DNA of 64,000 nt from Nanobdellota archaeon (lineage in GTDB: Archaea; Nanobdellota; Nanobdellia; Parvarchaeales; Parvarchaeaceae). The stretch covers positions 33,187 through 97,186 of the forward strand of contig JAJYZA010000002.1 in NCBI GenBank assembly GCA_021800365.1, in the 5' to 3' direction. Positions 1,747 to 53,292 of the stretch are shown in pieces; positions within the stretch are counted from its first letter, which is position 1, and every line of letters begins with the position of its first letter. A program made the translations under genes and the position numbers. The notes beneath the pieces were generated by a model. It ran no database searches and was not told where the DNA came from. It worked only from the letters and a program-made list of their open reading frames with translations.

Positions 1747-4059
1747 TTATTGTTTTAACCTATGGGCTCTTATAAGTACTTCGCTGTAAATAGACAGCTC
1801 TTTTGGTATCTCGATTCCAGAAATTTCGCCATTGAGTGCGAGTCCACGGCTTTTTTTTGTGCTCCAAATCATGCTATCGAATTCACATATCTTGACGATG
1901 TCTTTAGAAAAGTCTCCAGTTACCTCCTTTTTCTCAAATAACCTTTTTTTGATATCATCAGAATACAAGGTATTATAAAGATATTCAGTAAGGAATGGCG
2001 CAATCGGATTTAATAGCTCTAGAGAATTTTTTAATATGTAATTGAGTGTGTATATAACAGATTTGTTCCCTTCATAAGCAGCAGGTTTTTGTAATTCTAT
2101 ATAATGGTCTGCAAATACGCCAATTAAAAAAGTCTTTATCTCCTTTAGCGCATCAAAATATGCATAATTATCATATTGAGACACAACACGATTATAAAGC
2201 GCATCAAACGCATTCAAAAATATTTTGTCAAATATAGACAGTTCTTTGGGCATTTCGGTGTTATCTTTACCAAATATGGCCACGAATTTTGCAATATTAG
2301 AGATTTTTGTAAGTATCCGTTCGGCTTCATTAATTTTTTCTTTTGAGTATCGTATGTCTCCGTCTATTAAATTTCCTCCCAGGTATGCCCATAATCGAAT
2401 GACATCTGCTCCGTTTTCATTTAAAGCCTTCTCTATAGGTATACCGTTGCCTTTGCTTTTAGAGAATTTTTCCCCATTTTCATCTACCGCATGGTTTGTA
2501 ATCATTACTTCAACGAAAGGTTCCTTTTGTGTCAGCAAAATCGATTTAACTAACGTATAATACAACCAGGTTCTCACAATCTCTTTTCCTTGCGGTCTTA
2601 AAGAAACTGGAAAATTATGATTAAAATAGCTTTGTTTCCTTCCGTACCCAACAATAAATAAATTTGAATTACTAGAATCCATCCAGGTATCAAATATACG
2701 TCGGTCTCCCTCCAGCTCAGATCCACCGCATTTTGTACACGTTAGTCCCTTCGGTGTCTCTCGCCACGGCTCATAATATTTTCCCGTTTCTGGCACGACA
2801 TACTCTCCGCATTTCTTGCATTTCCACAATGGAATCTCGTTACCGTAATAACGTGTTCTTGATATCGGCCAGTCTCTATCCACAGAATTTATCCAGTCTA
2901 TAAGTAACTGCCTAGATGGCTCGTCATGGAATTCCATTTCCCTCGCCATTTTCAATGCCTCTTGTTTAAGTTCAACTTGTTTCAGGTAGAGTTCTTTTTC
3001 TCTTATTATTTCGACTGCGTTTTTTGATCTCCAACAGACAGGTTTTTGTGTTTTTATGCTTTTTTCTTCAGATACTACGCCAATAGTTCTTAAATCTTCA
3101 ATTATAGCCGCTCTAGCCTGTGCTATTGTCAAGCCAGAATATTTTTCGGCATCTTTAATTTTTCCATGTTCATCTATTATAAGTCGCTCTGTAAGGTGGT
3201 GTTTTCTGAATAATTCGACATCTGCTTTATCTCCGTAAGAACATACCATCATTAAACCAGTTCCAAAGTTAGGATCTATGGCTTCGTCAAAAATCAGTGG
3301 GACCTTTTTATTTGTTATTGGCATTATTGCGGTTTTTAGGTGTGAGTATCTTGTATCTGCAGGATTTGCAGCAATGGCCGCACATGCAGGTAAGAGTTCT
3401 GGGCGCGTAGTTGCAATATAGAACTCTTTATCGTCAATTTTTATGCTAAGTTTATAAAGTTTTATGTCTTTTTCTTCGTATTCGACTTCTGCGTCTGAAA
3501 GAGTGGTATGACAAACCGTGCAATAATTCACTAATTGTGTGTCTTCGTAAATCTTACCTTCTTTCCACAACTTTATGAATATCGCTTGGCCGAGTGCGCG
3601 ATATTCTGGACTATCAGTCTCATACGCACCGCCTATTTCATTGCTAGTGTTATAATCATTGAATGAGAAACCAAGTCTACGAAACACATCACGATTCTTG
3701 TCTTTATATTTATCCAAAAGCTTTTTGCAAGCATTTACATAGGTTTCTCTGTCAGTTTTTCGTATATCTATGCCGAATTCTTTTTCGGCTTGAACCTCAA
3801 TTGGTAGGCCGTTTTTATCTAGACCAAATGGGAATATAACTTCAAATCCTAGTGCGCGTTTAACCCGTGCCGTCGTATCTATGTATGTATATGCCGCGGC
3901 GTGTCCTATATGGAGATCGGCGTTTATATATGGCGGGGGCGTATCAATAGAAAATACTTTTTTCTTTACCATATCGTTTAATTTAAATGGCCATAGTTTC
4001 TCCCAGCTGCTTAAGATAGCTCCTTCTATTTCTATTCTTTCTCTAGATTTCATGCTCAC
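1747..4059 (-). CDS. valS: Class I aminoacyl-tRNA synthetase, most likely valyl-tRNA synthetase.
   Basis: It carries TPPPY..LHIGHA (a HIGH motif with a TPPP lead-in typical of ValRS). It has a KFSKSKGN (KMSKS) motif and zinc-knuckle CxxC pairs. It is 770 aa long. Confidence 0.65.
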   Translation of the reverse strand: MSMKSRERIEIEGAILSSWEKLWPFKLNDMVKKKVFSIDTPPPYINADLHIGHAAAYTYIDTTARVKRALGFEVIFPFGLDKNGLPIEVQAEKEFGIDIRKTDRETYVNACKKLLDKYKDKNRDVFRRLGFSFNDYNTSNEIGGAYETDSPEYRALGQAIFIKLWKEGKIYEDTQLVNYCTVCHTTLSDAEVEYEEKDIKLYKLSIKIDDKEFYIATTRPELLPACAAIAANPADTRYSHLKTAIMPITNKKVPLIFDEAIDPNFGTGLMMVCSYGDKADVELFRKHHLTERLIIDEHGKIKDAEKYSGLTIAQARAAIIEDLRTIGVVSEEKSIKTQKPVCWRSKNAVEIIREKELYLKQVELKQEALKMAREMEFHDEPSRQLLIDWINSVDRDWPISRTRYYGNEIPLWKCKKCGEYVVPETGKYYEPWRETPKGLTCTKCGGSELEGDRRIFDTWMDSSNSNLFIVGYGRKQSYFNHNFPVSLRPQGKEIVRTWLYYTLVKSILLTQKEPFVEVMITNHAVDENGEKFSKSKGNGIPIEKALNENGADVIRLWAYLGGNLIDGDIRYSKEKINEAERILTKISNIAKFVAIFGKDNTEMPKELSIFDKIFLNAFDALYNRVVSQYDNYAYFDALKEIKTFLIGVFADHYIELQKPAAYEGNKSVIYTLNYILKNSLELLNPIAPFLTEYLYNTLYSDDIKKRLFEKKEVTGDFSKDIVKICEFDSMIWSTKKSRGLALNGEISGIEIPKELSIYSEVLIRAHRLKQ

Positions 4060-5387
4060 TCAAGATCTATTTCTTGTCCATCTAAAAGTATATGCGAACT
4101 ACGATTAAGTTCATAACCCAACTCTTTTCCTACTTCTATCGCCGCACTTATTTTATCCATACCGCCATGAGAAGGTATAAAGTGTTTTGGTTTTAATAGA
4201 TTTAGAAGTAATTTATAGTCATTCTTTGCTGCGTGTCCGGAGACGTGCACGTTATCGGCGACATTTACATTAAGTTCTTCCATTGCACTTTGTAGCATAC
4301 TTCGATTCGCAGTATTAAGCGGCGTAGGTATTACTCTCGATGAGAAAATAATAGCATCTTCGCTACTCAATTTATAGTCATATTGACCCGTGACAAGCTT
4401 ATCCAGAAATGATCCTTTCTCACCTTGGTGCCCGGTGCATATTATTACGTATTTACCAGGTCTGTCTTTTACATACTTTAATATGTTGTTTATCTGCTCT
4501 CTTCTAGTTGCTACCTCTGGAAATTTAGATTTTTCAATTATTTTGGTGTCTATGGCTGCTTTTATATACATCGCCATACTACGACCGAATATCAATGTCT
4601 GTCTATTAAGTTTTCTGCTTATTTCTATTATATTTTTTATGCGAGCGATGTGTGATGAAAAGGTTGTTATGAATATAGTTTTGTTGTCTAATGTCTTTTT
4701 TATTACGTCTTCTAACATGGTTCTTACGACACTCTCTGAGAACGTATAACCTTCTTGATCTACATTAGTAGAGTCTAATATTAGCGTATGCACGCCAGAT
4801 TTTGCTAAATTTTCCATTCTTTCATAATTTGGTTTGTTTCCGATAGTGGGGGTTTCATCTAACTTCCAGTCGTTTGCGTATAATATCGCACCGTATTTCG
4901 TATGTAAGGCCGCCATTGCGCAATTAGGTATAGAATGTGTTATGTGTATAAGCTCCAGCGTTACGTTGTTTGATAGCTTATATTTCGTACCTGTGTTTAG
5001 TGTTATTAACCTAAGGTCATGTTTTCTAACGTCCTTCGTAAGCTTTTCTACCACTTTTATTGTGAACGGCGTGGCAATTATCGGGCATTTATATTTTGAT
5101 GCCAAAAATGGGATGGCCCATACATGATCAAGATGTCCATGTGTAAGAACTATTGCCTTTACTCTTTTTCCGTTCTCTTCAAAAAATGCTCTATCGTTTG
5201 GGATAACTGAATTGTCTATCAATGCATCGGTGTCAGTTAAGGAGATATAATTCTTCTCATCTTCAAAGTCCACAAGTTTTTCTATGTCTGCGCCCATGTC
5301 CATTAGTACGATATCACCGTCTACGTCAATAGCGGTCATGCTTTTTCCGATTTTACTATATCCTCCAAATGCTCTTATCTTTATCAT
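4056..5387 (-). CDS. Metallo-beta-lactamase/beta-CASP ribonuclease (archaeal RNase J-like).
   Basis: It has an HGHLDHV metallo-beta-lactamase motif and a later HVSGHA motif. Its roughly 440-aa length fits aRNase J. Confidence 0.55.
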   Translation of the reverse strand: MIKIRAFGGYSKIGKSMTAIDVDGDIVLMDMGADIEKLVDFEDEKNYISLTDTDALIDNSVIPNDRAFFEENGKRVKAIVLTHGHLDHVWAIPFLASKYKCPIIATPFTIKVVEKLTKDVRKHDLRLITLNTGTKYKLSNNVTLELIHITHSIPNCAMAALHTKYGAILYANDWKLDETPTIGNKPNYERMENLAKSGVHTLILDSTNVDQEGYTFSESVVRTMLEDVIKKTLDNKTIFITTFSSHIARIKNIIEISRKLNRQTLIFGRSMAMYIKAAIDTKIIEKSKFPEVATRREQINNILKYVKDRPGKYVIICTGHQGEKGSFLDKLVTGQYDYKLSSEDAIIFSSRVIPTPLNTANRSMLQSAMEELNVNVADNVHVSGHAAKNDYKLLLNLLKPKHFIPSHGGMDKISAAIEVGKELGYELNRSSHILLDGQEIDLE

Positions 5388-30286: not shown

Positions 30287-30370
30287 ATTATGCTTATGGC
30301 GTTTGGTTTATTCTTATAATTTAAGTCTTTTGGTATATTTAACACTTTATCCAATCGTATTGCTATAACG

Positions 30371-30445
30371 TGGGGCAGCTGGGATTTGAACCCAGGACAG
30401 CGTGAGCCCTAGTCACGCATCATAACCAAGCTAGATCACCGCCCC
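30371..30445 (-). tRNA. tRNA-Pro. The anticodon loop CTAGGGC reads AGG at positions 34-36. CCA is not encoded.
   Basis: The sense sequence is GGGGCGG-TG-ATCT-AGCTTGGTTA-TGAT-G-CGTGA-CTAGGGC-TCACG-CTGTC-CTGGG-TTCAAAT-CCCAG-CTGCCCC-A. It is 75 nt with a canonical cloverleaf. Confidence 0.75.
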
Positions 30446-35391: not shown

Positions 35392-35697
35392 TATACGGAT
35401 ATTTTAACTTTTTTTATCATAGATCGCCGTCGTCAAAAAGAGAAATTGGATGTAAATGTTGAACTTTCGTGAAAATAGTACAGAAATAATATATGATTTT
35501 TAGTTCAATAAGGTTTTTAAATGGGGAAATGATTAAGTTATTATAAAAAGAAATTAAAATTTGAACGTCGGGAAACGTCCAAATTTTTAATCATGATTTC
35601 GTAAGTATTTGGGAACACTTACTTTTCTTTATAAAAATATAAGACAAGATGAGAATATAAAGCTTTCGGTTTTGTGTTCTCACCTGAGGAGGGAAAA

Positions 35698-36780
35698 ATG
35701 GTAATGGATCTGTTGGTGGAGAGCGCCTTGAAAGCTAGCAAGGAAAACTCTGAGGAGCCTCTCTTCAACCAAGCCCTTATAAAAGTTGTAGGGGTAGGCG
35801 GAGGAGGCAATAACATGGCCGGATGGCTTTATCGAAAAGGCGTAAAGGGCGCTGAAGTAGTGATAGCTAATACAGACCAAGTACAGTTGAATGCGAGACA
35901 AGGTGATAAGAAAATTCTTATCGGAAAAGAACTTACGCGCGGGCTCGGTGCAGGCGGTTTTCCTGCAAAAGGAAAGGCTGCCGCAGAAGAATCTGCAAGG
36001 GAGCTTAAGGATTCCCTAAGGGGCGCGGACCTAGTATTTGTATGTGCTGGTCTTGGTGGAGGTACTGGAACTGGCGCAGCACCTGTAGTAGCTAAGTTGG
36101 CTAAAGAAGCAGGCGCAATCGTAATAAGTACGGTAACAATGCCTTTCAAGACAGAAAGAAAGCGCGTTGAAAACGCAGAAACCGGACTTGCTGAACTTAG
36201 GTCAAATTCAGATACAGTTATTGTTATCGACAATAATAGATTGACTGCTATGGCTGGAAATCTCCCGCTAGATCAGGCCTTTAACGTAGCTAACGAAGTC
36301 GTCGCGACAATGATAAAAGGCATCGTTGAGACAATCTCTGACGCAGCTGCGCTTGTACATCTCGACTTCGCTGATATAAAAGCGATAATGAACCAAGGTG
36401 GCGTATCTGTTATCGGGATTGGCGAGACTGACGCCTCTGATTCAAGGGTTAATGAGGTCGTAAGGAGGGCTTTGAATAACCCATTGCTCGATGTCAGCTA
36501 CAAGGGAGCAAAAGGCGCACTGATCCATATAACTGGCGGACCAGATCTGACATTATCTGAAGTTAATCAGATAGGTGAGTTGGCTACGCAGTCCCTAGAT
36601 CCGGATGCAGTTGTAATCTGGGGTGCCAGAGTCGATGAAAATATGTCTGGTAAACTGAGGGTGATGACAATAATCACCGGAGTCAGTTCGCCGTATCTGC
36701 TGGGACAGGATGAGCTAACGACTCTTTCAAAGACAACCGGCGCAATAAGCCAAGAACTCGGTATAGAGGTACTGAGATAA
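35698..36780 (+). CDS. ftsZ: Cell division GTPase FtsZ (paralog 1).
   Basis: It has a GGGTGTGAAPVVA tubulin signature and a VVGVGGGGNN motif. A GGAGGG Shine-Dalgarno sits 6 nt upstream of ATG 35698. The track ORF starts at 35674. Confidence 0.85.
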   Translation: MVMDLLVESALKASKENSEEPLFNQALIKVVGVGGGGNNMAGWLYRKGVKGAEVVIANTDQVQLNARQGDKKILIGKELTRGLGAGGFPAKGKAAAEESARELKDSLRGADLVFVCAGLGGGTGTGAAPVVAKLAKEAGAIVISTVTMPFKTERKRVENAETGLAELRSNSDTVIVIDNNRLTAMAGNLPLDQAFNVANEVVATMIKGIVETISDAAALVHLDFADIKAIMNQGGVSVIGIGETDASDSRVNEVVRRALNNPLLDVSYKGAKGALIHITGGPDLTLSEVNQIGELATQSLDPDAVVIWGARVDENMSGKLRVMTIITGVSSPYLLGQDELTTLSKTTGAISQELGIEVLR

Positions 36781-37202: not shown

Positions 37203-37607
37203 ATGGGCAAAAAACCTGATCTTGAAATAAAATTGTTCTATAAAGAGGACACTCTAATGTCGGGAGAAAGTCAGGGGCCGTATACTTACGGCGCTACAGA
37301 CCCAGATTTTAAGCATTCAGAAGTCTATGCGGATAATATACTAATAAACGAATGTGGGGATGTGATGAACCATCTGGAGATTAAAGATGCGTCGCGTCTA
37401 CCATTTCGATATAAACAAAAACTAATAAAAATAGTGGTACGGGAAATAAACAATTTTGCTCTGCATGAATTATCTCATAAGTATAGTAAGTGTGGGCATT
37501 ATAAACAACTGGCACAAAATACGTATAAAAATAGTTATATACACAGTTATACGGAAAGAAACTTTGATGATGCGATAAAAAAGATATTAGATTGGTGCAT
37601 GCACTGA
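37203..37607 (+). CDS. Hypothetical protein.
   Basis: It is a 134-aa ORF containing an HELSHKYSKCGH motif. Confidence 0.3.
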   Translation: MGKKPDLEIKLFYKEDTLMSGESQGPYTYGATDPDFKHSEVYADNILINECGDVMNHLEIKDASRLPFRYKQKLIKIVVREINNFALHELSHKYSKCGHYKQLAQNTYKNSYIHSYTERNFDDAIKKILDWCMH

Positions 37608-37647
37608 ATGAAAAATAATCTAAAGTTTAACTCCATATCTAAAAGAA

Positions 37648-37719
37648 TGAGCCCAGAGAGAGTTGAACTCCCGTCTCATCCGTGTAAGGGATGCGTCATA
37701 GCCGTTAGACTATGGGCTC
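37648..37719 (-). tRNA. tRNA-Val (anticodon TAC). CCA is not encoded.
   Basis: The sense sequence is GAGCCCA-TA-GTCT-AACGGCTA-TGAC-G-CATCC-CTTACAC-GGATG-AGAC-GGGAG-TTCAACT-CTCTC-TGGGCTC-A. It is 72 nt. Confidence 0.75.
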
Positions 37720-37914
37720 ATTAAAGAATAAGTAAATGTCTACTATAATAAGTTTATGTGCAACAAATATTAAAATTTAACGCATTAAATTCAAGTTAAA
37801 GCCATTAAACTCCCCCAGGCAGTATTTCGAATGTAGCTTTTGTTAAATCTGCTTCGGAGGTACTGATATAGAATAAAATAATGCTTATATAGCTTTTGTT
37901 ATCAATAATTAAGA

Positions 37915-40104
37915 ATGGGCCGGGATTTAGAACAGAAACTAACTCTAGATGAGCTGCTTGCTAAGCGCGATGGGAAACTCCTTCTTTGGGATATAACTGA
38001 TAACGATTTATTTTGGCAGCTTTTCACCGATACAAGCCAGATACCGACAGGTAATGTACTAAAACCTAGAAATAAAGCAGAAGAGAAAGCTTCCAAATTT
38101 TATTACAGCCCATACTACAGAATAGTAGGTCATGAGGATGAGATGGAAAAATCACGCGCAGTCATTGATAGTTTTATAGCCGACTGCAGGCGCGTAATTA
38201 ATCTTGAAAATGACCTGTTGGAGAGGGGAGTAAAAAAACGGGATAGAATAAGAATATTGCAGAGAGAATCCCCTAGGATTCCTATACTAAATAGAGACGG
38301 TCCGCATGCCGGGGGCAAAACTTCGCAGCAAATAGCCGATGAAGAATATTTTGAGATAAAGGCTAGGCCAGATCCTGACAAATTAGATATTGGTTTGCCA
38401 AGTTATGATTTTGTCGTCAGGAGACATAATAATTATATAACGCTAGACAAATTGGTCGCTCCAAAAGGAGTAGAGGAATGTACTAGGTTTGAAGCGGGAG
38501 AACGCGCAAAAAGCAGATTACTTAGCGGATTAAAGTGGGTAATTGGGGGTGGCACTAGTGCTATTATTGGATATGCATTTTATGATTGGATAGTTAAATA
38601 TGGAGCGATAGCTGAGCAAGCCGGATATGATTGGATTACTTGGGTCATGGCAAACGTAATTGGTGCGCTACAACCACTGGCGGAGATTGTTTTTATGATA
38701 ACTGCCCCCACTCTTGTATACGAGCTTACAGCGCATTTTAAAAAGAATAAGAAGAACCATCCGAAAATTCTTATTGATGGGTCAGGAGAACCGCCACATT
38801 TAATAGGAACAGAAGTATCTCCCGCAATGCTTGTAGGCGCCTACGATGAATATGCGGATAAGTCTCCCCAAGACAGATTTACACAGGAACCGGTTCTGCT
38901 TAAATCACTGTATAAACCACTTACAATCGAAAATCTGCATGAACTTAATAATCCTTCACAAAGCATACTAGCGCAGGTGCTTGAAGAGAAAAAGGTTGAG
39001 GTGGCAGGTCGTGCTGACCTATCTGAATTTTGGTTTGGTCTAATCTCAGTCTGTACAAATACTCAGTGGTTGAATAAGTTACTAGAATCTCTTAAGAACA
39101 GGTTGAATTACGCAACTACGATTTATGTAAAAAATGAGGTTGAAAGAACGCCGCGGCACGAAAGGCATCTTGGAGTAATACTTGCAGATATTATAGACGG
39201 AATAAAAGGTAGGCCAGCAAAAAGAGATGCTTATCTAGAGTTCCTTGATTATACTTCAAGACTAGCTGATAGCTCTAATGAGCTACATATAAGCAGAAGG
39301 GTTATTAGACTGCCAAAAAGAGCTGAGGAGCTAGCTGCAGCGGAAGGATCAAGTTATATAGAAGCAAGGCACATCATGCGTGCAGAAGCCGAATCAAGAT
39401 CGCAGATACAACTCGCAATGTTAGAAAAATTGTCTTCGGCTCTTTCAGAAGTTGGAACACCTGTAAATGATTCCGAGAAGATTGGCTTGGTTAAAGTCTT
39501 ATGTAGTTATAATGATGAGAGTTTGCAGAATCTAGAAGTTGGCGGTCCGGTAGGCGTATATGATTACGTTTATTCGGAAGATTACGTCGGTTATGCAGTG
39601 CCAATACGGGCAAGAATAGTTGGGAGTAAATCTGCTTTTTCTAAACTCTTTTCTCACAATGGAATCCATATACACACGACAAATGCGCGTGTTAATCAAA
39701 AGGTAAATGAGTATTCCGAAGCTTTAAGGGGATTGTTTGCCGACGATGGGATAGATATAGACGATTATAAGGTACTTATTTCCATCCCAACACTCGATGA
39801 TGATAGTACGATTGTCGCAGGTGCATACCTAGCGATTAAATCAGCTATAGAACAAAAGCCTCTTCGGCAGGACTTATTAATGGCAGCGCAGCTATCGGAT
39901 ACAATAGGAGATATCACATCCTTGCCACATATGAATTCTAGGCTATTCTATGCGGATGGTCTTTGTAATGGCGTGGTCGTATCGGATTATGATTATAATA
40001 ATAAGATAATAAAAAGAGACGGCAGTTCATTATACCGCGATATTAATATAATCCCAGTAAAAAATAGAAAAGAGCTATTTGAAGCATTTGTAAAGGCGAA
40101 TTAA
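37915..40104 (+). CDS. Large hypothetical protein (729 aa). It has a P-loop-like GPHAGGKTS motif, two central TM helices, and a C-terminal Lon-protease (S16)-like domain.
   Basis: The C-terminal region NGIHIH...DDDSTIVAGAYLAIKSAI...QDLLMAAQLSDTIGDI resembles Lon/LonB motifs (GIHI, GDSAS catalytic Ser, and QSVAMTGSLSVRGDV). Two hydrophobic helices lie around residues 200-260. Confidence 0.35.
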   Translation: MGRDLEQKLTLDELLAKRDGKLLLWDITDNDLFWQLFTDTSQIPTGNVLKPRNKAEEKASKFYYSPYYRIVGHEDEMEKSRAVIDSFIADCRRVINLENDLLERGVKKRDRIRILQRESPRIPILNRDGPHAGGKTSQQIADEEYFEIKARPDPDKLDIGLPSYDFVVRRHNNYITLDKLVAPKGVEECTRFEAGERAKSRLLSGLKWVIGGGTSAIIGYAFYDWIVKYGAIAEQAGYDWITWVMANVIGALQPLAEIVFMITAPTLVYELTAHFKKNKKNHPKILIDGSGEPPHLIGTEVSPAMLVGAYDEYADKSPQDRFTQEPVLLKSLYKPLTIENLHELNNPSQSILAQVLEEKKVEVAGRADLSEFWFGLISVCTNTQWLNKLLESLKNRLNYATTIYVKNEVERTPRHERHLGVILADIIDGIKGRPAKRDAYLEFLDYTSRLADSSNELHISRRVIRLPKRAEELAAAEGSSYIEARHIMRAEAESRSQIQLAMLEKLSSALSEVGTPVNDSEKIGLVKVLCSYNDESLQNLEVGGPVGVYDYVYSEDYVGYAVPIRARIVGSKSAFSKLFSHNGIHIHTTNARVNQKVNEYSEALRGLFADDGIDIDDYKVLISIPTLDDDSTIVAGAYLAIKSAIEQKPLRQDLLMAAQLSDTIGDITSLPHMNSRLFYADGLCNGVVVSDYDYNNKIIKRDGSSLYRDINIIPVKNRKELFEAFVKAN

Positions 40105-40898
40105 TGGAAGATAAACGAAGCGACGAGGAGGTATTTAAAGAATTTTATGATGAAGCGTTACACTCAGCGTCAACAAAGTATACGCTAAATAAGCTTAAAC
40201 GAGGTCTAAAAACAGTAACTCTTAATTTGTTACCAACTGGCGTTCTTCCGTATTTTCTCCAGAAGAAGATAGTTAAGCATATGAATTTCGAAAAGAGTGA
40301 AGCAGGTGGCCTAAAAGAAGTAAAATTCTTTAAGCCCAAACTGGCCAGTATTCTTTCATCTGCTTACTTAGGCGCATTAGGATACTGGCTTTATAACGCC
40401 GGAACTCAGACATGGGAGGTAATGAGCACATACAGTAAATGGACATCGGGTGGTTGGGAGAATTTAACTATTCCATTTATTTATGTATCAATACCCGGCG
40501 CAGTACTTGCTGGAATAGGCGCTTATTTTATGGTAAATGCGATTCGCGCCCCAATTAGCTATTTGAGTCGACCATGTGGGGATATATCTACTGAAGGGGC
40601 CTATTTTGTTGCGAATAGACTAAAGAAGTTATTTTATAAAAATAAAAAAATAAATAGCGCCGCTTTAGAGGAAGCTCAAATAAGGTTTACGCTATTTAAA
40701 ACTCAAAGAGAATCAGTTTCAAATGATAACGATTTCAGTGCCATTCGTAAACTTAATAATGAGTTATACGTGCAACTTAATTCACATGATGAAAAAAGCG
40801 CACAAAGTACTCTTTTAGAGTTAAATGAGGTGCGAAAAAGACATGGATTAACCGCTCTTAAATTAAGTGAGTCTAAACTGGAGGAAGCTTTGCGATAA
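40104..40898 (+). CDS. Hypothetical protein with two central TM helices.
   Basis: It is 264 aa. Its start overlaps the upstream stop. Confidence 0.35.
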   Translation: MEDKRSDEEVFKEFYDEALHSASTKYTLNKLKRGLKTVTLNLLPTGVLPYFLQKKIVKHMNFEKSEAGGLKEVKFFKPKLASILSSAYLGALGYWLYNAGTQTWEVMSTYSKWTSGGWENLTIPFIYVSIPGAVLAGIGAYFMVNAIRAPISYLSRPCGDISTEGAYFVANRLKKLFYKNKKINSAALEEAQIRFTLFKTQRESVSNDNDFSAIRKLNNELYVQLNSHDEKSAQSTLLELNEVRKRHGLTALKLSESKLEEALR

Positions 40899-41223
40899 TT
40901 TTATGCACGGACCCTCTTTAAGTGAACTTTTAAATCCCATAAAAAAGAACCAGGACACTGGGCAACTTATTTATCAACCTTTACCTGCCGTAGAACGACC
41001 TCATTATAAGTTGGGTATGAATAGATTTTTAGCCACATTGGGGGGCACGGCGGGAGCTTTGGTAGGTTATTTAATTGGTGTAACCTCTTCTGGTATGCAA
41101 GCAGATGGGCTTTGGGTCGGAATGCTTATGGCAATGTATGGGTTTACAGTTCTTTCTAGTATTATAGATAAGTATGCTTCTTGGACTAAAATAGAATATA
41201 TTAAGTGGACTAACTCTAGGTAA
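40867..41223 (+). CDS. Hypothetical small membrane protein.
   Basis: It is 118 aa with two hydrophobic helices. It overlaps the upstream gene by 32 nt. Confidence 0.3.
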   Translation: MSLNWRKLCDNFMHGPSLSELLNPIKKNQDTGQLIYQPLPAVERPHYKLGMNRFLATLGGTAGALVGYLIGVTSSGMQADGLWVGMLMAMYGFTVLSSIIDKYASWTKIEYIKWTNSR

Positions 41224-41278
41224 ATAATTACTTAACTAAAACTGCTTTTATATTTAAATTGTTAATTATTTAATCATC

Positions 41279-41353
41279 GGGTCCGTCGCTTAACCAGGCT
41301 AGAGCAGCTGGCTCTTAACCAGCCTATTGTGGGTTCAAATCCCACCGGACCCA
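41279..41353 (+). tRNA. tRNA-Lys (anticodon CTT). CCA is not encoded.
   Basis: The sequence is GGGTCCG-TC-GCTT-AACCAGGCTA-GAGC-A-GCTGG-CTCTTAA-CCAGC-CTATT-GTGGG-TTCAAAT-CCCAC-CGGACCC-A. It is 75 nt. Confidence 0.8.
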
Positions 41354-41430
41354 TTTTGCTTATGGGATAACGCTTACATTTGAGAAGCAGTATTCTATCG
41401 TATAACATATTAATGTGTACAGTCAATGTA

Positions 41431-52161: not shown

Positions 52162-53292
52162 ATGAATGCAGACTTTGTGGGTGGAAACGTATCCGGTCAG
52201 GGTGTTAAGAATGCTAATTTTGATTCTAGTAAAACGAAAGAATACGATAAACTTTTAGAAGAGATGCTTACTTCAAAGAGGACCAGTATAAAAGTAGTCG
52301 GTGTGGGTGGTTCAGGTAATAATACTCTTACACGGATGGCCGAGGTGGGCATAAAAGGTGCAGAACTTATAGCTATAAACACCGACGCGGCGGATCTTCT
52401 TTGTACTCCGGCGGATAAAAAAATACTTATTGGAAAAGAGCTTACGAATGGACTCGGCGCCGGTGCGGATCCTTCCGTAGGCGAAGCCGCAGCAAAGGAA
52501 CAAGAACAAGAAATAAAAGAATACTTACAGGGATCAGATATGGTTTTTATCTGCTGTGGTATGGGTGGCGGAACTGGGACTGGTGCAGCGCCAGTAGTTG
52601 CACAAGTCGCAAAGAAACTCAATACATTGACTATTGCGGTTGTAACGGTGCCTTTTAAGGCAGAAGGTAAGCGTAGGATGGCACAAGCGATGGCCGGGAT
52701 AGAAAAACTAAAAGCTTCCGTTGATACGCTAATAACCGTACCAAATGAAAAACTACTTGCAATAGCACCCGGACTTCCATTGCCGATAGCATTAAAGATA
52801 GCAGATGACGTATTAACCAACGCTGTAAAAGGAATAACAGAACTCATCACAAAAGCCGGCTTAATAAACGTAGATTTCGCGGACGTAAAGAGAATAATGT
52901 CTAATGGTGGCGTTGCTCTTATAGGCAGCGGTGAAAGTGATGCCAAAGACAAGAAGCTGGAAACCGTAGTAGATAAAATACTGAATAACCCACTAATAGA
53001 TGTTGACGTTTCTACGGCAAGAGGCATGTTGATTGATATCAGTGGCGGCACATCCCTTACATTGGAGGAGGCTAATAAGGTAGTTGAGATAATTGGTTCA
53101 AAATTGCCTGAAGATATAAATATAATCTGGGGAGCGCATATATTCCCAGATCTTAAGAATACAATAAAGGCATTAGCTATAATAACCGGAGTGACTTCTC
53201 GACAGATAACTGGTAAGTCAATAAAAGAAGAGAAAGAGGCAAAAGAGCGCGAAGAAGTTGAAGAGGAACTCGGTATAACTTTCTTAAGTTAG
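52162..53292 (+). CDS. ftsZ: Cell division GTPase FtsZ (paralog 2).
   Basis: It has GGGTGTGAAPVVA and VVGVGGSGNN motifs. It is 376 aa with an acidic C-terminal tail. Confidence 0.85.
   Translation: MNADFVGGNVSGQGVKNANFDSSKTKEYDKLLEEMLTSKRTSIKVVGVGGSGNNTLTRMAEVGIKGAELIAINTDAADLLCTPADKKILIGKELTNGLGAGADPSVGEAAAKEQEQEIKEYLQGSDMVFICCGMGGGTGTGAAPVVAQVAKKLNTLTIAVVTVPFKAEGKRRMAQAMAGIEKLKASVDTLITVPNEKLLAIAPGLPLPIALKIADDVLTNAVKGITELITKAGLINVDFADVKRIMSNGGVALIGSGESDAKDKKLETVVDKILNNPLIDVDVSTARGMLIDISGGTSLTLEEANKVVEIIGSKLPEDINIIWGAHIFPDLKNTIKALAIITGVTSRQITGKSIKEEKEAKEREEVEEELGITFLS

Follow-up and report, generated by a model that had tools for sequence, protein, structure and literature searches.

Do three genes that lie between a tRNA-Val gene and a tRNA-Lys gene in the genome of a Nanobdellota archaeon encode an active membrane protease, and do the tRNA genes that enclose them mark an integrated island? 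These questions are raised by positions 37,648 to 41,353 of a stretch of 64,000 nucleotides (nt) of contig JAJYZA010000002.1 (assembly GCA_021800365.1, positions 33,187 to 97,186 of the forward strand), which is called the window in the following. The initial annotation had described the first of the three genes as encoding a Lon-protease-like membrane protein of 729 amino acids (aa), and it had regarded the locus as a possible old fixed insertion at an integration hot spot. The description of the protein held and could be sharpened: it is of the full-length LonB type, and both the catalytic dyad and the Walker B glutamate have been lost throughout its family. The integration scenario did not hold up, as detailed below. 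We consider it likely that the protein is a LonB-derived pseudoenzyme that, together with a membrane partner, forms a ring that binds clients without cleaving them, and that the two tRNA genes represent an old, conserved genomic frame rather than integration scars. The locus is organized as follows:

37647–37720, minus strand: tRNA-Val (anticodon TAC), found with ARAGORN and Rfam (RF00005, 63.4 bits); its transcription points away from the operon
37721–37914, no strand: AT-rich intergenic region of 194 nt, read from the sequence
37915–40104, plus strand: gene of the 729-aa membrane protein, probably a LonB-derived AAA+ pseudoprotease (open reading frame, profiles, AlphaFold2 and Foldseek, ratio of nonsynonymous to synonymous substitutions, dN/dS)
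40104–40898, plus strand: gene of the 264-aa membrane partner (downstream homologues in loci L009–L019, alignment, dN/dS)
40903–41223, plus strand: gene of a 106-aa small protein (orthologue in contig L017, dN/dS, hydropathy)
41279–41353, plus strand: tRNA-Lys (anticodon CTT), found with ARAGORN and Rfam (63 bits); the right boundary of the locus

The 729-aa protein belongs to a very divergent family, which was recovered solely by exhaustive HMMER searching. A word-indexed search of 5.8 billion proteins retrieved the query only, and the family profile likewise, while phmmer against 1.84 billion cluster representatives yielded 27 proteins, of which about a dozen are full-length, with identities of 29–39%. 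Scanning of genome contigs with the single 729-aa protein found nothing; the patterns for contig scans were derived from a 7-sequence alignment, the 16-sequence alignment being too divergent for patterns, and no relatives of the protein were found in scans of metagenome and viral contigs. Compared on its own with the NCBIfam LonB model TIGR00764, the protein obtained 39.5 bits (E = 2.8e-10), below the equivalog cut-off of 516.6 bits, and in Pfam it gave a sub-threshold match to the LonB LID only. The initial annotation had proposed a comparison with the Pfam domain Lon_C; neither Lon_C nor AAA was matched at E ≤ 0.01 by any of the 16 family members scanned, and the fold was recovered by profile and structure searches instead.

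The profile of 16 family members matched the LonB protease of T. onnurineus (TonLonB, 3k1j) with E = 1.5e-30 and its construct of the ATPase plus the transmembrane (TM) region (4zpx) with 2.2e-19, as well as the Lon protease domains of M. jannaschii (1xhk, 3.9e-07) and A. fulgidus (1z0w, 1.1e-04). An AlphaFold2 model built on the same 16-member alignment reached a predicted local distance difference test score (pLDDT) of 84 and a predicted template modelling score (pTM) of 0.76. The best Foldseek match of this model was again 3k1j (E = 4.6e-28, TM-score 0.73 normalised to the target), followed by MtaLonC, the LonC of Meiothermus taiwanensis, with an identity of about 15% in the structural alignment with LonB. 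The alignment is collinear with LonB from end to end and comprises the N-terminal helix (IVGHE, corresponding to VIGQE), Walker A, the membrane insertion, Walker B, sensor-1, the arginine finger, the LID with sensor-2, and the protease domain. The 729-aa protein is thus a full-length, deeply divergent LonB homologue in fold and architecture, and the Lon S16-like domain that had been proposed for its C-terminal region is real. The parts of the protein that matter for the following argument are:

38299–38322, plus strand: Walker A motif (P-loop) GPHAGGKT, residues 129–136, aligned to GEPGTGKS of TonLonB and located N-terminal of the TM insertion
38518–38724, plus strand: membrane-anchoring helical hairpin, residues ~202–270, between Walker A and Walker B (hydropathy, model, 4zpx alignment)
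38917–38934, plus strand: degenerate Walker B motif PLTIEN, residues 335–340, aligned to VLFIDEI of TonLonB
39457–40101, plus strand: Lon B-type protease-fold domain, residues ~515–729, aligned to 1xhk, 1z0w and 3k1j and matched by Foldseek; it lacks a catalytic dyad
39805–39810, plus strand: S631-T632, with T632 in the column of the catalytic serine and S631 in that of the preceding aspartate
39940–39942, plus strand: R676 in the column of the catalytic lysine, aligned to K of GGVNEKIEAA (1xhk) and GGVTQKIEAA (1z0w)

An insertion that anchors the protein in the membrane and is located between Walker A and Walker B defines the true archaeal LonB (PMC9569914, PMC3391209). The 729-aa protein has two hydrophobic segments at this place, ~202–227 and ~244–262, which correspond to the two central TM helices noticed previously. 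They are found at the same position across the family by hydropathy, form a hairpin of long helices (184–235 and 240–279) in the model, and align with the TM region of 4zpx. The P-loop-like motif GPHAGGKTS (residues 129–137) had been noticed as well, yet the protein had been thought to lack the Walker A motif of LonB. Since the alignment is collinear with LonB, GPHAGGKTS is the LonB Walker A. The model places it between a strand (124–129) and a helix (133–150), and its lysine, K135, is present in 23 of the 23 members that cover the motif, with Ser, Thr or Ala in place of the preceding glycine in many of them. The protease domain carries one feature specific to the family, an insertion of about 22 residues in a beta-hairpin (~536–557) that has a conserved EDYxGY motif and a low pLDDT at residues 538–554.

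The conserved elements of the ATPase module and of the protease domain do not all share the same fate. Retained are sensor-1 (N382, Asn in 27/27 members), the arginine finger (R396, Arg in 25/27 and Lys in the other two), sensor-2 (R461, Arg in 29/29) and the pore-loop-1 motif [Y/L/I]-hydrophobic-Gly, with the glycine in 23/24. In Walker B, by contrast with TonLonB, the aspartate is replaced by glutamate (E339) in all 25 members, and the column of the catalytic glutamate, which is N340 in the window protein, is occupied by Asn in 19 members, Gln in five and Lys in one. Both assignments agree with the model, in which E339 ends the strand 335–339 and N382 ends the strand 376–382. In the protease domain, Arg occupies the catalytic lysine column in 28 of 28 members, as the initial annotation had suspected for the window protein. 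Its proposal that DDST matches the catalytic serine of GDSAS was out by one residue: the spacing to the conserved helix ending in SA places T632 in the serine column. Across the family this column contains Ala (11 members), Ser (7), Thr (7) or Asn (1). An aspartate directly ahead of the catalytic serine is a signature of B- and C-type Lon proteases (PMC9569914); the family has D or E in this column in 25 of 28 members, Ser (S631) being the residue of the window protein, and D in the next column upstream in 27 of 28. Two canonical Lon outgroups, the weakest phmmer matches P0024 and P0026, keep IDE, DGPSAG and GG..K and thus serve as an internal control of the alignment. P0024, a canonical Lon-like protein of 1101 aa, also has about 400 aa inserted in the region of the pore loop, a stretch that looks like an intein by eye (Cys at its start, and SHN at its end followed by Ser).

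These states bear on the view that the protein is a working Lon protease after all, a fast-evolving LonB orthologue that uses a Thr or Ser nucleophile, an arginine as the base and an E-N version of Walker B. DPANN proteins are often very divergent, the full LonB architecture is in place with Walker A, sensors, arginine finger and pore loop conserved, S631 and T632 provide hydroxyl groups at the site, and there is no second Lon within the 64-kb window. Against this stand the replacement of Lys by Arg in every member, the Asn, Gln or, once, Lys in the column of the Walker B glutamate, and the score far below the LonB equivalog cut-off; moreover, we know of no Ser/Thr-Arg dyad in clan SJ. In addition, the nucleophile column contains Ala (11) or Asn (1) in 12 of 26 members, although purifying selection acts on the rest of the domain; therefore, the function of the family is independent of the nucleophile. 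Altogether, we regard a working Lon protease as improbable. Judged by established Lon and AAA+ enzymology, the 729-aa protein would not cleave peptides by the Lon mechanism.

Another possibility would be an active AAA+ motor that has lost proteolysis alone. Like the FtsHi/Ycf2 complexes of plastids, it would act at the membrane to pull or translocate polypeptides, and the partner would serve as its channel or adaptor. Pore-loop-1, arginine finger, both sensors and the Walker A lysine are conserved, as would be expected of such a motor, an invariant acidic residue, E339, ends the Walker B strand, and the gene is constantly coupled to that of a membrane protein. However, the residue that should activate the water molecule is Asn or Gln in all members but the one with Lys, and it is known from AAA+ enzymology that a Glu to Gln exchange at this position of Walker B blocks hydrolysis and leaves binding intact; the replacement seen in the family equals the 'ATP-trap' mutation of the laboratory. 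An active motor thus appears unlikely to us. Instead, the family probably binds ATP without hydrolyzing it, like the engineered Walker B Glu-to-Gln mutants, as far as the motif states indicate.

In all 11 other loci (L009–L019), a homologue of the 264-aa protein is encoded directly downstream of the Lon-like gene, either overlapping with it or at a distance of at most 5 nt. In the window, the stop codon of the first gene and the start codon of the second overlap by 1 nt (TAATG). Alignment and hydropathy indicate that the partner probably has two TM helices and a helical C-terminal region. Its conserved motifs are N..PTGFLPY..QK.I at the N-terminus, FxPKxASI and RAPxSY in the membrane region, and INxLRKKMGLEE at the C-terminus, the consensus of which is N-x-[VL]-R-K-x-x-G-L; the partner in locus L016 is considerably longer (636 aa) and has the same C-terminal motif. 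Pfam and NCBIfam gave sub-threshold matches only, PADLOC a non-significant match to Cas4b (E = 0.032), and PHROGs none. The structure prediction for the partner, made from four sequences, was unusable (pLDDT 47).

The initial annotation had described all three genes as co-oriented and overlapping. The common orientation was corroborated, and so was the overlap of the first two genes; the third gene does not overlap, as its most likely start is ATG 40903, 4 nt past the stop codon of the second gene, which gives a protein of 106 aa. An alternative start at GTG 40867, which would give an overlapping gene for 118 aa, was rejected, because the orthologue in L017 and the gene callers in several assemblies use ATG 40903. 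The 106-aa protein contains two hydrophobic, glycine-rich segments. It was found only in the window and in L017, is absent from L011, and had no match in Pfam, NCBIfam, PADLOC or PHROGs. The promoter of the operon is presumably located in the AT-rich region of 194 nt upstream of the first gene (37721–37914).

L017, a short contig from ENA, carries a close relative of the cassette, with 82% DNA identity over positions 39555–41356 of the window. The identities at the protein level are 90% for the C-terminal part of the Lon-like protein, 79% for the partner and 73% for the small protein. The corresponding dN/dS values (Nei-Gojobori) are 0.077, 0.124 and 0.181, respectively, at dS values of 0.7–0.9. 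All three genes are real and under purifying selection.

The homology, the fold, the states of the motifs, the purifying selection and the partner gene that always follows can be combined into the following picture of a LonB-derived pseudoenzyme. The 729-aa protein would assemble as a membrane-anchored, LonB-like hexameric ring, in which ATP would be a structural or allosteric ligand and not a fuel, bound and probably unhydrolysed. Polypeptide clients would be held in the pore or chamber of the ring and stay uncleaved. The ring and the translationally coupled 264-aa partner may form a stoichiometric membrane complex, to which the 106-aa protein would be added as a third subunit in the lineage of the window, and this complex may have a scaffolding, holdase or regulatory role at the membrane.

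Several points weigh against this picture. The loss of both activities is deduced from motif states, and, in principle, ATP might still be hydrolysed slowly with the help of the invariant E339. The arginine finger, both sensors and the pore loop are kept, as would be expected of a working motor, and the window protein has hydroxyl residues at or beside the position of the nucleophile. The protein may be either a paralogue or the degenerate, sole LonB orthologue of its genome.

The question whether the locus is an island was approached from the tRNA genes, the flanks and the loci in other genomes. Both tRNA genes and their orientations were confirmed, and the integrase, of which the initial annotation had seen no sign, is indeed lacking: Pfam, NCBIfam, PADLOC and PHROGs revealed no integrase and no mobile, defence or phage gene in the interval or in its flanks within the window. 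Direct repeats of the tRNA 3' ends, which had been suggested as possible att sites, were not found either; a repeat search and blastn-short of both tRNA genes against the whole window gave only T-loop matches to other tRNA genes. The GC content of the cassette (0.37–0.40) and that at third codon positions (GC3, 0.30–0.33) are inside the range of the neighbouring genes. The remainder of the window encodes archaeal housekeeping functions, namely class I and II aminoacyl-tRNA synthetases, RNase J, ABCE1, GatD/GatE, DUF359 and diphthamide synthase; downstream of tRNA-Lys, a DUF488 gene is followed by an SDR gene.

Three further observations were made on the surroundings of the locus within the window. 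Just outside tRNA-Val, an orphan open reading frame for 134 aa (37203–37607, plus strand) contains HELSH, a motif of the HExxH type that resembles those of zinc proteases. It has a gene call in every assembly of the source genome and is absent from L011; Pfam, NCBIfam and PHROGs gave no match to it, and PADLOC only a non-significant one (E = 0.021). Two FtsZ paralogues are encoded in the window (35674–36780 and 52162–53292). At 30370–30445 on the minus strand, ARAGORN called a tRNA-Pro with the anticodon AGG, which is unusual for archaea.

The most informative locus elsewhere is L011, from a metagenome-assembled genome (MAG) labelled Parvarchaeota. It contains GatD, FtsZ, tRNA-Val, the gene pair and tRNA-Lys in the order of the window, with two differences: its cassette (2421–5332) is inverted relative to the two outward-facing tRNA genes, and the third gene is missing. 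The comparison of sister genomes that had been proposed thus showed the pair between the same two tRNA genes in L011 and the three-gene form beside a tRNA-Lys gene in L017. The tRNA-Val/tRNA-Lys frame is common to the window and L011; the locus is therefore an old one that both share, and this speaks against a recent insertion. Integration at a tRNA gene in recent times was rejected on three grounds: the lack of att repeats, the lack of an integrase and the common frame.

Between the window and L011, the genes within the frame and those beside it have diverged to very different extents. Identities are 95% for FtsZ and 70% for GatD, compared with 35–38% for the Lon-like protein and 29–31% for the partner. 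Since dS is saturated between the two, dN was used in its place, and it amounts to 0.04 for FtsZ, 0.24 for GatD, 0.64 for the Lon-like gene and 0.77 for the partner. The FtsZ in question is the first of the two paralogues (35674–36780), and such a conservation at saturated synonymous sites indicates a very strong constraint for a DPANN lineage. Between L010 and L011, the dN values are 0.19 for the Lon-like gene and 0.37 for the partner, against 0.24 for a neighbouring gene of 420–438 aa, which by eye resembles glutamate dehydrogenase. In a neighbour-joining tree, the window protein is placed outside the clade of L009–L012, which has a bootstrap value of 100% and includes the L011 copy. Two origins are thus conceivable for the window copy, namely replacement by a deeply divergent version or a burst of change in the past. 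The low rate seen more recently, between the window and L017, speaks against ongoing fast evolution.

Family members from GTDB representative genomes are all found in MAGs labelled Parvarchaeota, Woesearchaeota, Nanoarchaeota or Micrarchaeota. In several lineages other than that of the window, the gene pair is located among metabolic genes with no tRNA gene nearby. The occurrence of the same genes outside a tRNA context had been named as an argument against the island if accompanied by orthologs of known function; the first part applies to the pair, while none of the orthologs has a known function. Neighbours in these loci include genes for cytochrome b, acyl-CoA and aldehyde dehydrogenases, a malate:quinone-oxidoreductase-like protein, cysteinyl-tRNA synthetase, and M16 and M24 peptidases. 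No integrase, transposase or defence gene was among the 20 flanking genes scanned in L009–L014 and L016. In three lineages, a peptidase gene is located one or two genes from the cassette, possibly by coincidence (L019, 1596–2489; L010, 523–1887; L012, 2869–4136; all on the minus strand); these peptidases are M48/HtpX-like, M16 and M24 prolidase-like, respectively.

tRNA genes adjoin the operon more often than expected. Of about 9 separable lineages, 4 have a tRNA gene within 100 nt of the operon's 3' end, and it is a different one in each, Lys-CTT, Val-TAC, Phe-GAA or Arg-GCG, in either orientation. The gaps in question are 41223–41279 in the window, 5332–5425 in L011, 3337–3374 in L016, 1452–1480 in L019 and 1666–1723 in L017. 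Based on a count in the window, the background of tRNA adjacency is about 3–5% of gene 3' ends, which results in a rough binomial P of about 3e-4. Furthermore, the similarity of the window and L017 ends exactly at the 3' end of tRNA-Lys (41354 onward in the window versus 1798 onward in L017). Past this point, L017 encodes a signal-anchored protein of more than 276 aa that is rich in Asn, Ser and Thr and is without a counterpart in the window.

Both observations would fit an old integrated island, formed by an accessory module of the mobile or defence type with tRNA genes as its targets, as would the inversion of the cassette and its far greater divergence from L011 in comparison with the flanking genes, and the restriction of conservation to the gene pair in differing surroundings. 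However, the searches described above brought up no integrase or transposase, nothing like an att repeat and no partial copy of a tRNA gene, PADLOC gave two non-significant matches (E of 0.02–0.03), and neither PHROGs nor the viral contigs gave any. GC and GC3 are normal, purifying selection is strong, and the same site is occupied in L011, a relative with saturated dS. We therefore consider an integrated island very improbable.

A different possibility combines the dead ring with mobility of the genes. The LonB-like ring and its partner might be a repurposed membrane machine that is specific to Micrarchaeota/Parvarchaeota-type DPANN archaea and the genes of which are a replaceable cassette, with deeply divergent versions being exchanged or moved to sites beside tRNA genes. 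If true, this would account both for the inverted copy in L011, with an identity of only about 35–38%, and for the excess of adjacent tRNA genes, and the machine could serve, for instance, to anchor the cell or to handle polypeptides at its surface or at the interface with a host. We rate the chances of this variant as slim. The pseudoenzyme within an old tRNA frame, which we favour, leaves both the excess of adjoining tRNA genes and the inverted, strongly diverged cassette of L011 unexplained.

The main ATP-dependent protease in archaeal membranes is LonB, and AAA+ proteases have given rise to pseudoenzymes, plastid FtsHi among them, with unexpected roles other than proteolysis. In our survey of the literature on inactivated LonB-like proteins and on Lon in DPANN archaea, no earlier description was found, nor any statement on the presence of a canonical LonB in these genomes. 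The family is small and unannotated: its 27 representatives among 1.84 billion proteins have no Pfam domain call and are labelled 'hypothetical'. As a natural experiment, it could teach what remains for a Lon ring to do when neither proteolysis nor turnover of ATP takes place, and the cell biology of DPANN archaea, which is poorly understood, gains a candidate membrane complex. Two consequences follow for annotation. Members of this family should not be named Lon proteases, and the bracketing of a gene set by tRNA genes is insufficient evidence for an island.

Among known systems, archaeal LonB (MEROPS S16, subfamily B; 3k1j/4zpx, 1z0w, 1xhk) is the best match in sequence as well as in structure, with the same collinear order of domains and the same two-helix insertion. 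Unlike LonB, the present family has Arg in place of the catalytic Lys, an unconserved serine column, and a Walker B that ends in E-N or E-Q (once E-K), and it also differs by the insertion in the protease hairpin and by its constant, dedicated membrane partner. Three defining features of LonB were tested and found to be lacking; therefore, the 729-aa protein should not be filed as LonB. LonC is likewise a member of the Lon family with a degenerate AAA-like module and a helical insertion at the same place, and MtaLonC is a hexamer, the AAA-like module of which does not hydrolyze ATP (PMC3391209, PMC13069640). LonC is soluble, has lost sensor-1 and sensor-2, and has a disrupted arginine finger, yet its Ser-Lys dyad is still active (PMC3391209). 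The opposite holds for the present family, which is anchored in the membrane and has kept the sensors and the arginine finger while the protease dyad was lost. Because the TM hairpin is present and the dyad absent, the protein should not be filed as LonC either.

Reuse of a protease scaffold for binding, scaffolding or translocation after the loss of catalysis has precedents in plastid FtsHi, iRhom/Derlin, RadA/Sms, ComM and BrxL. These belong to other families and hosts, none of them being a full-length LonB with a membrane hairpin and none being accompanied by a partner like the 264-aa protein. The pseudoprotease relatives of membrane proteases would be the closest functional analogy to the 729-aa protein and its partner.

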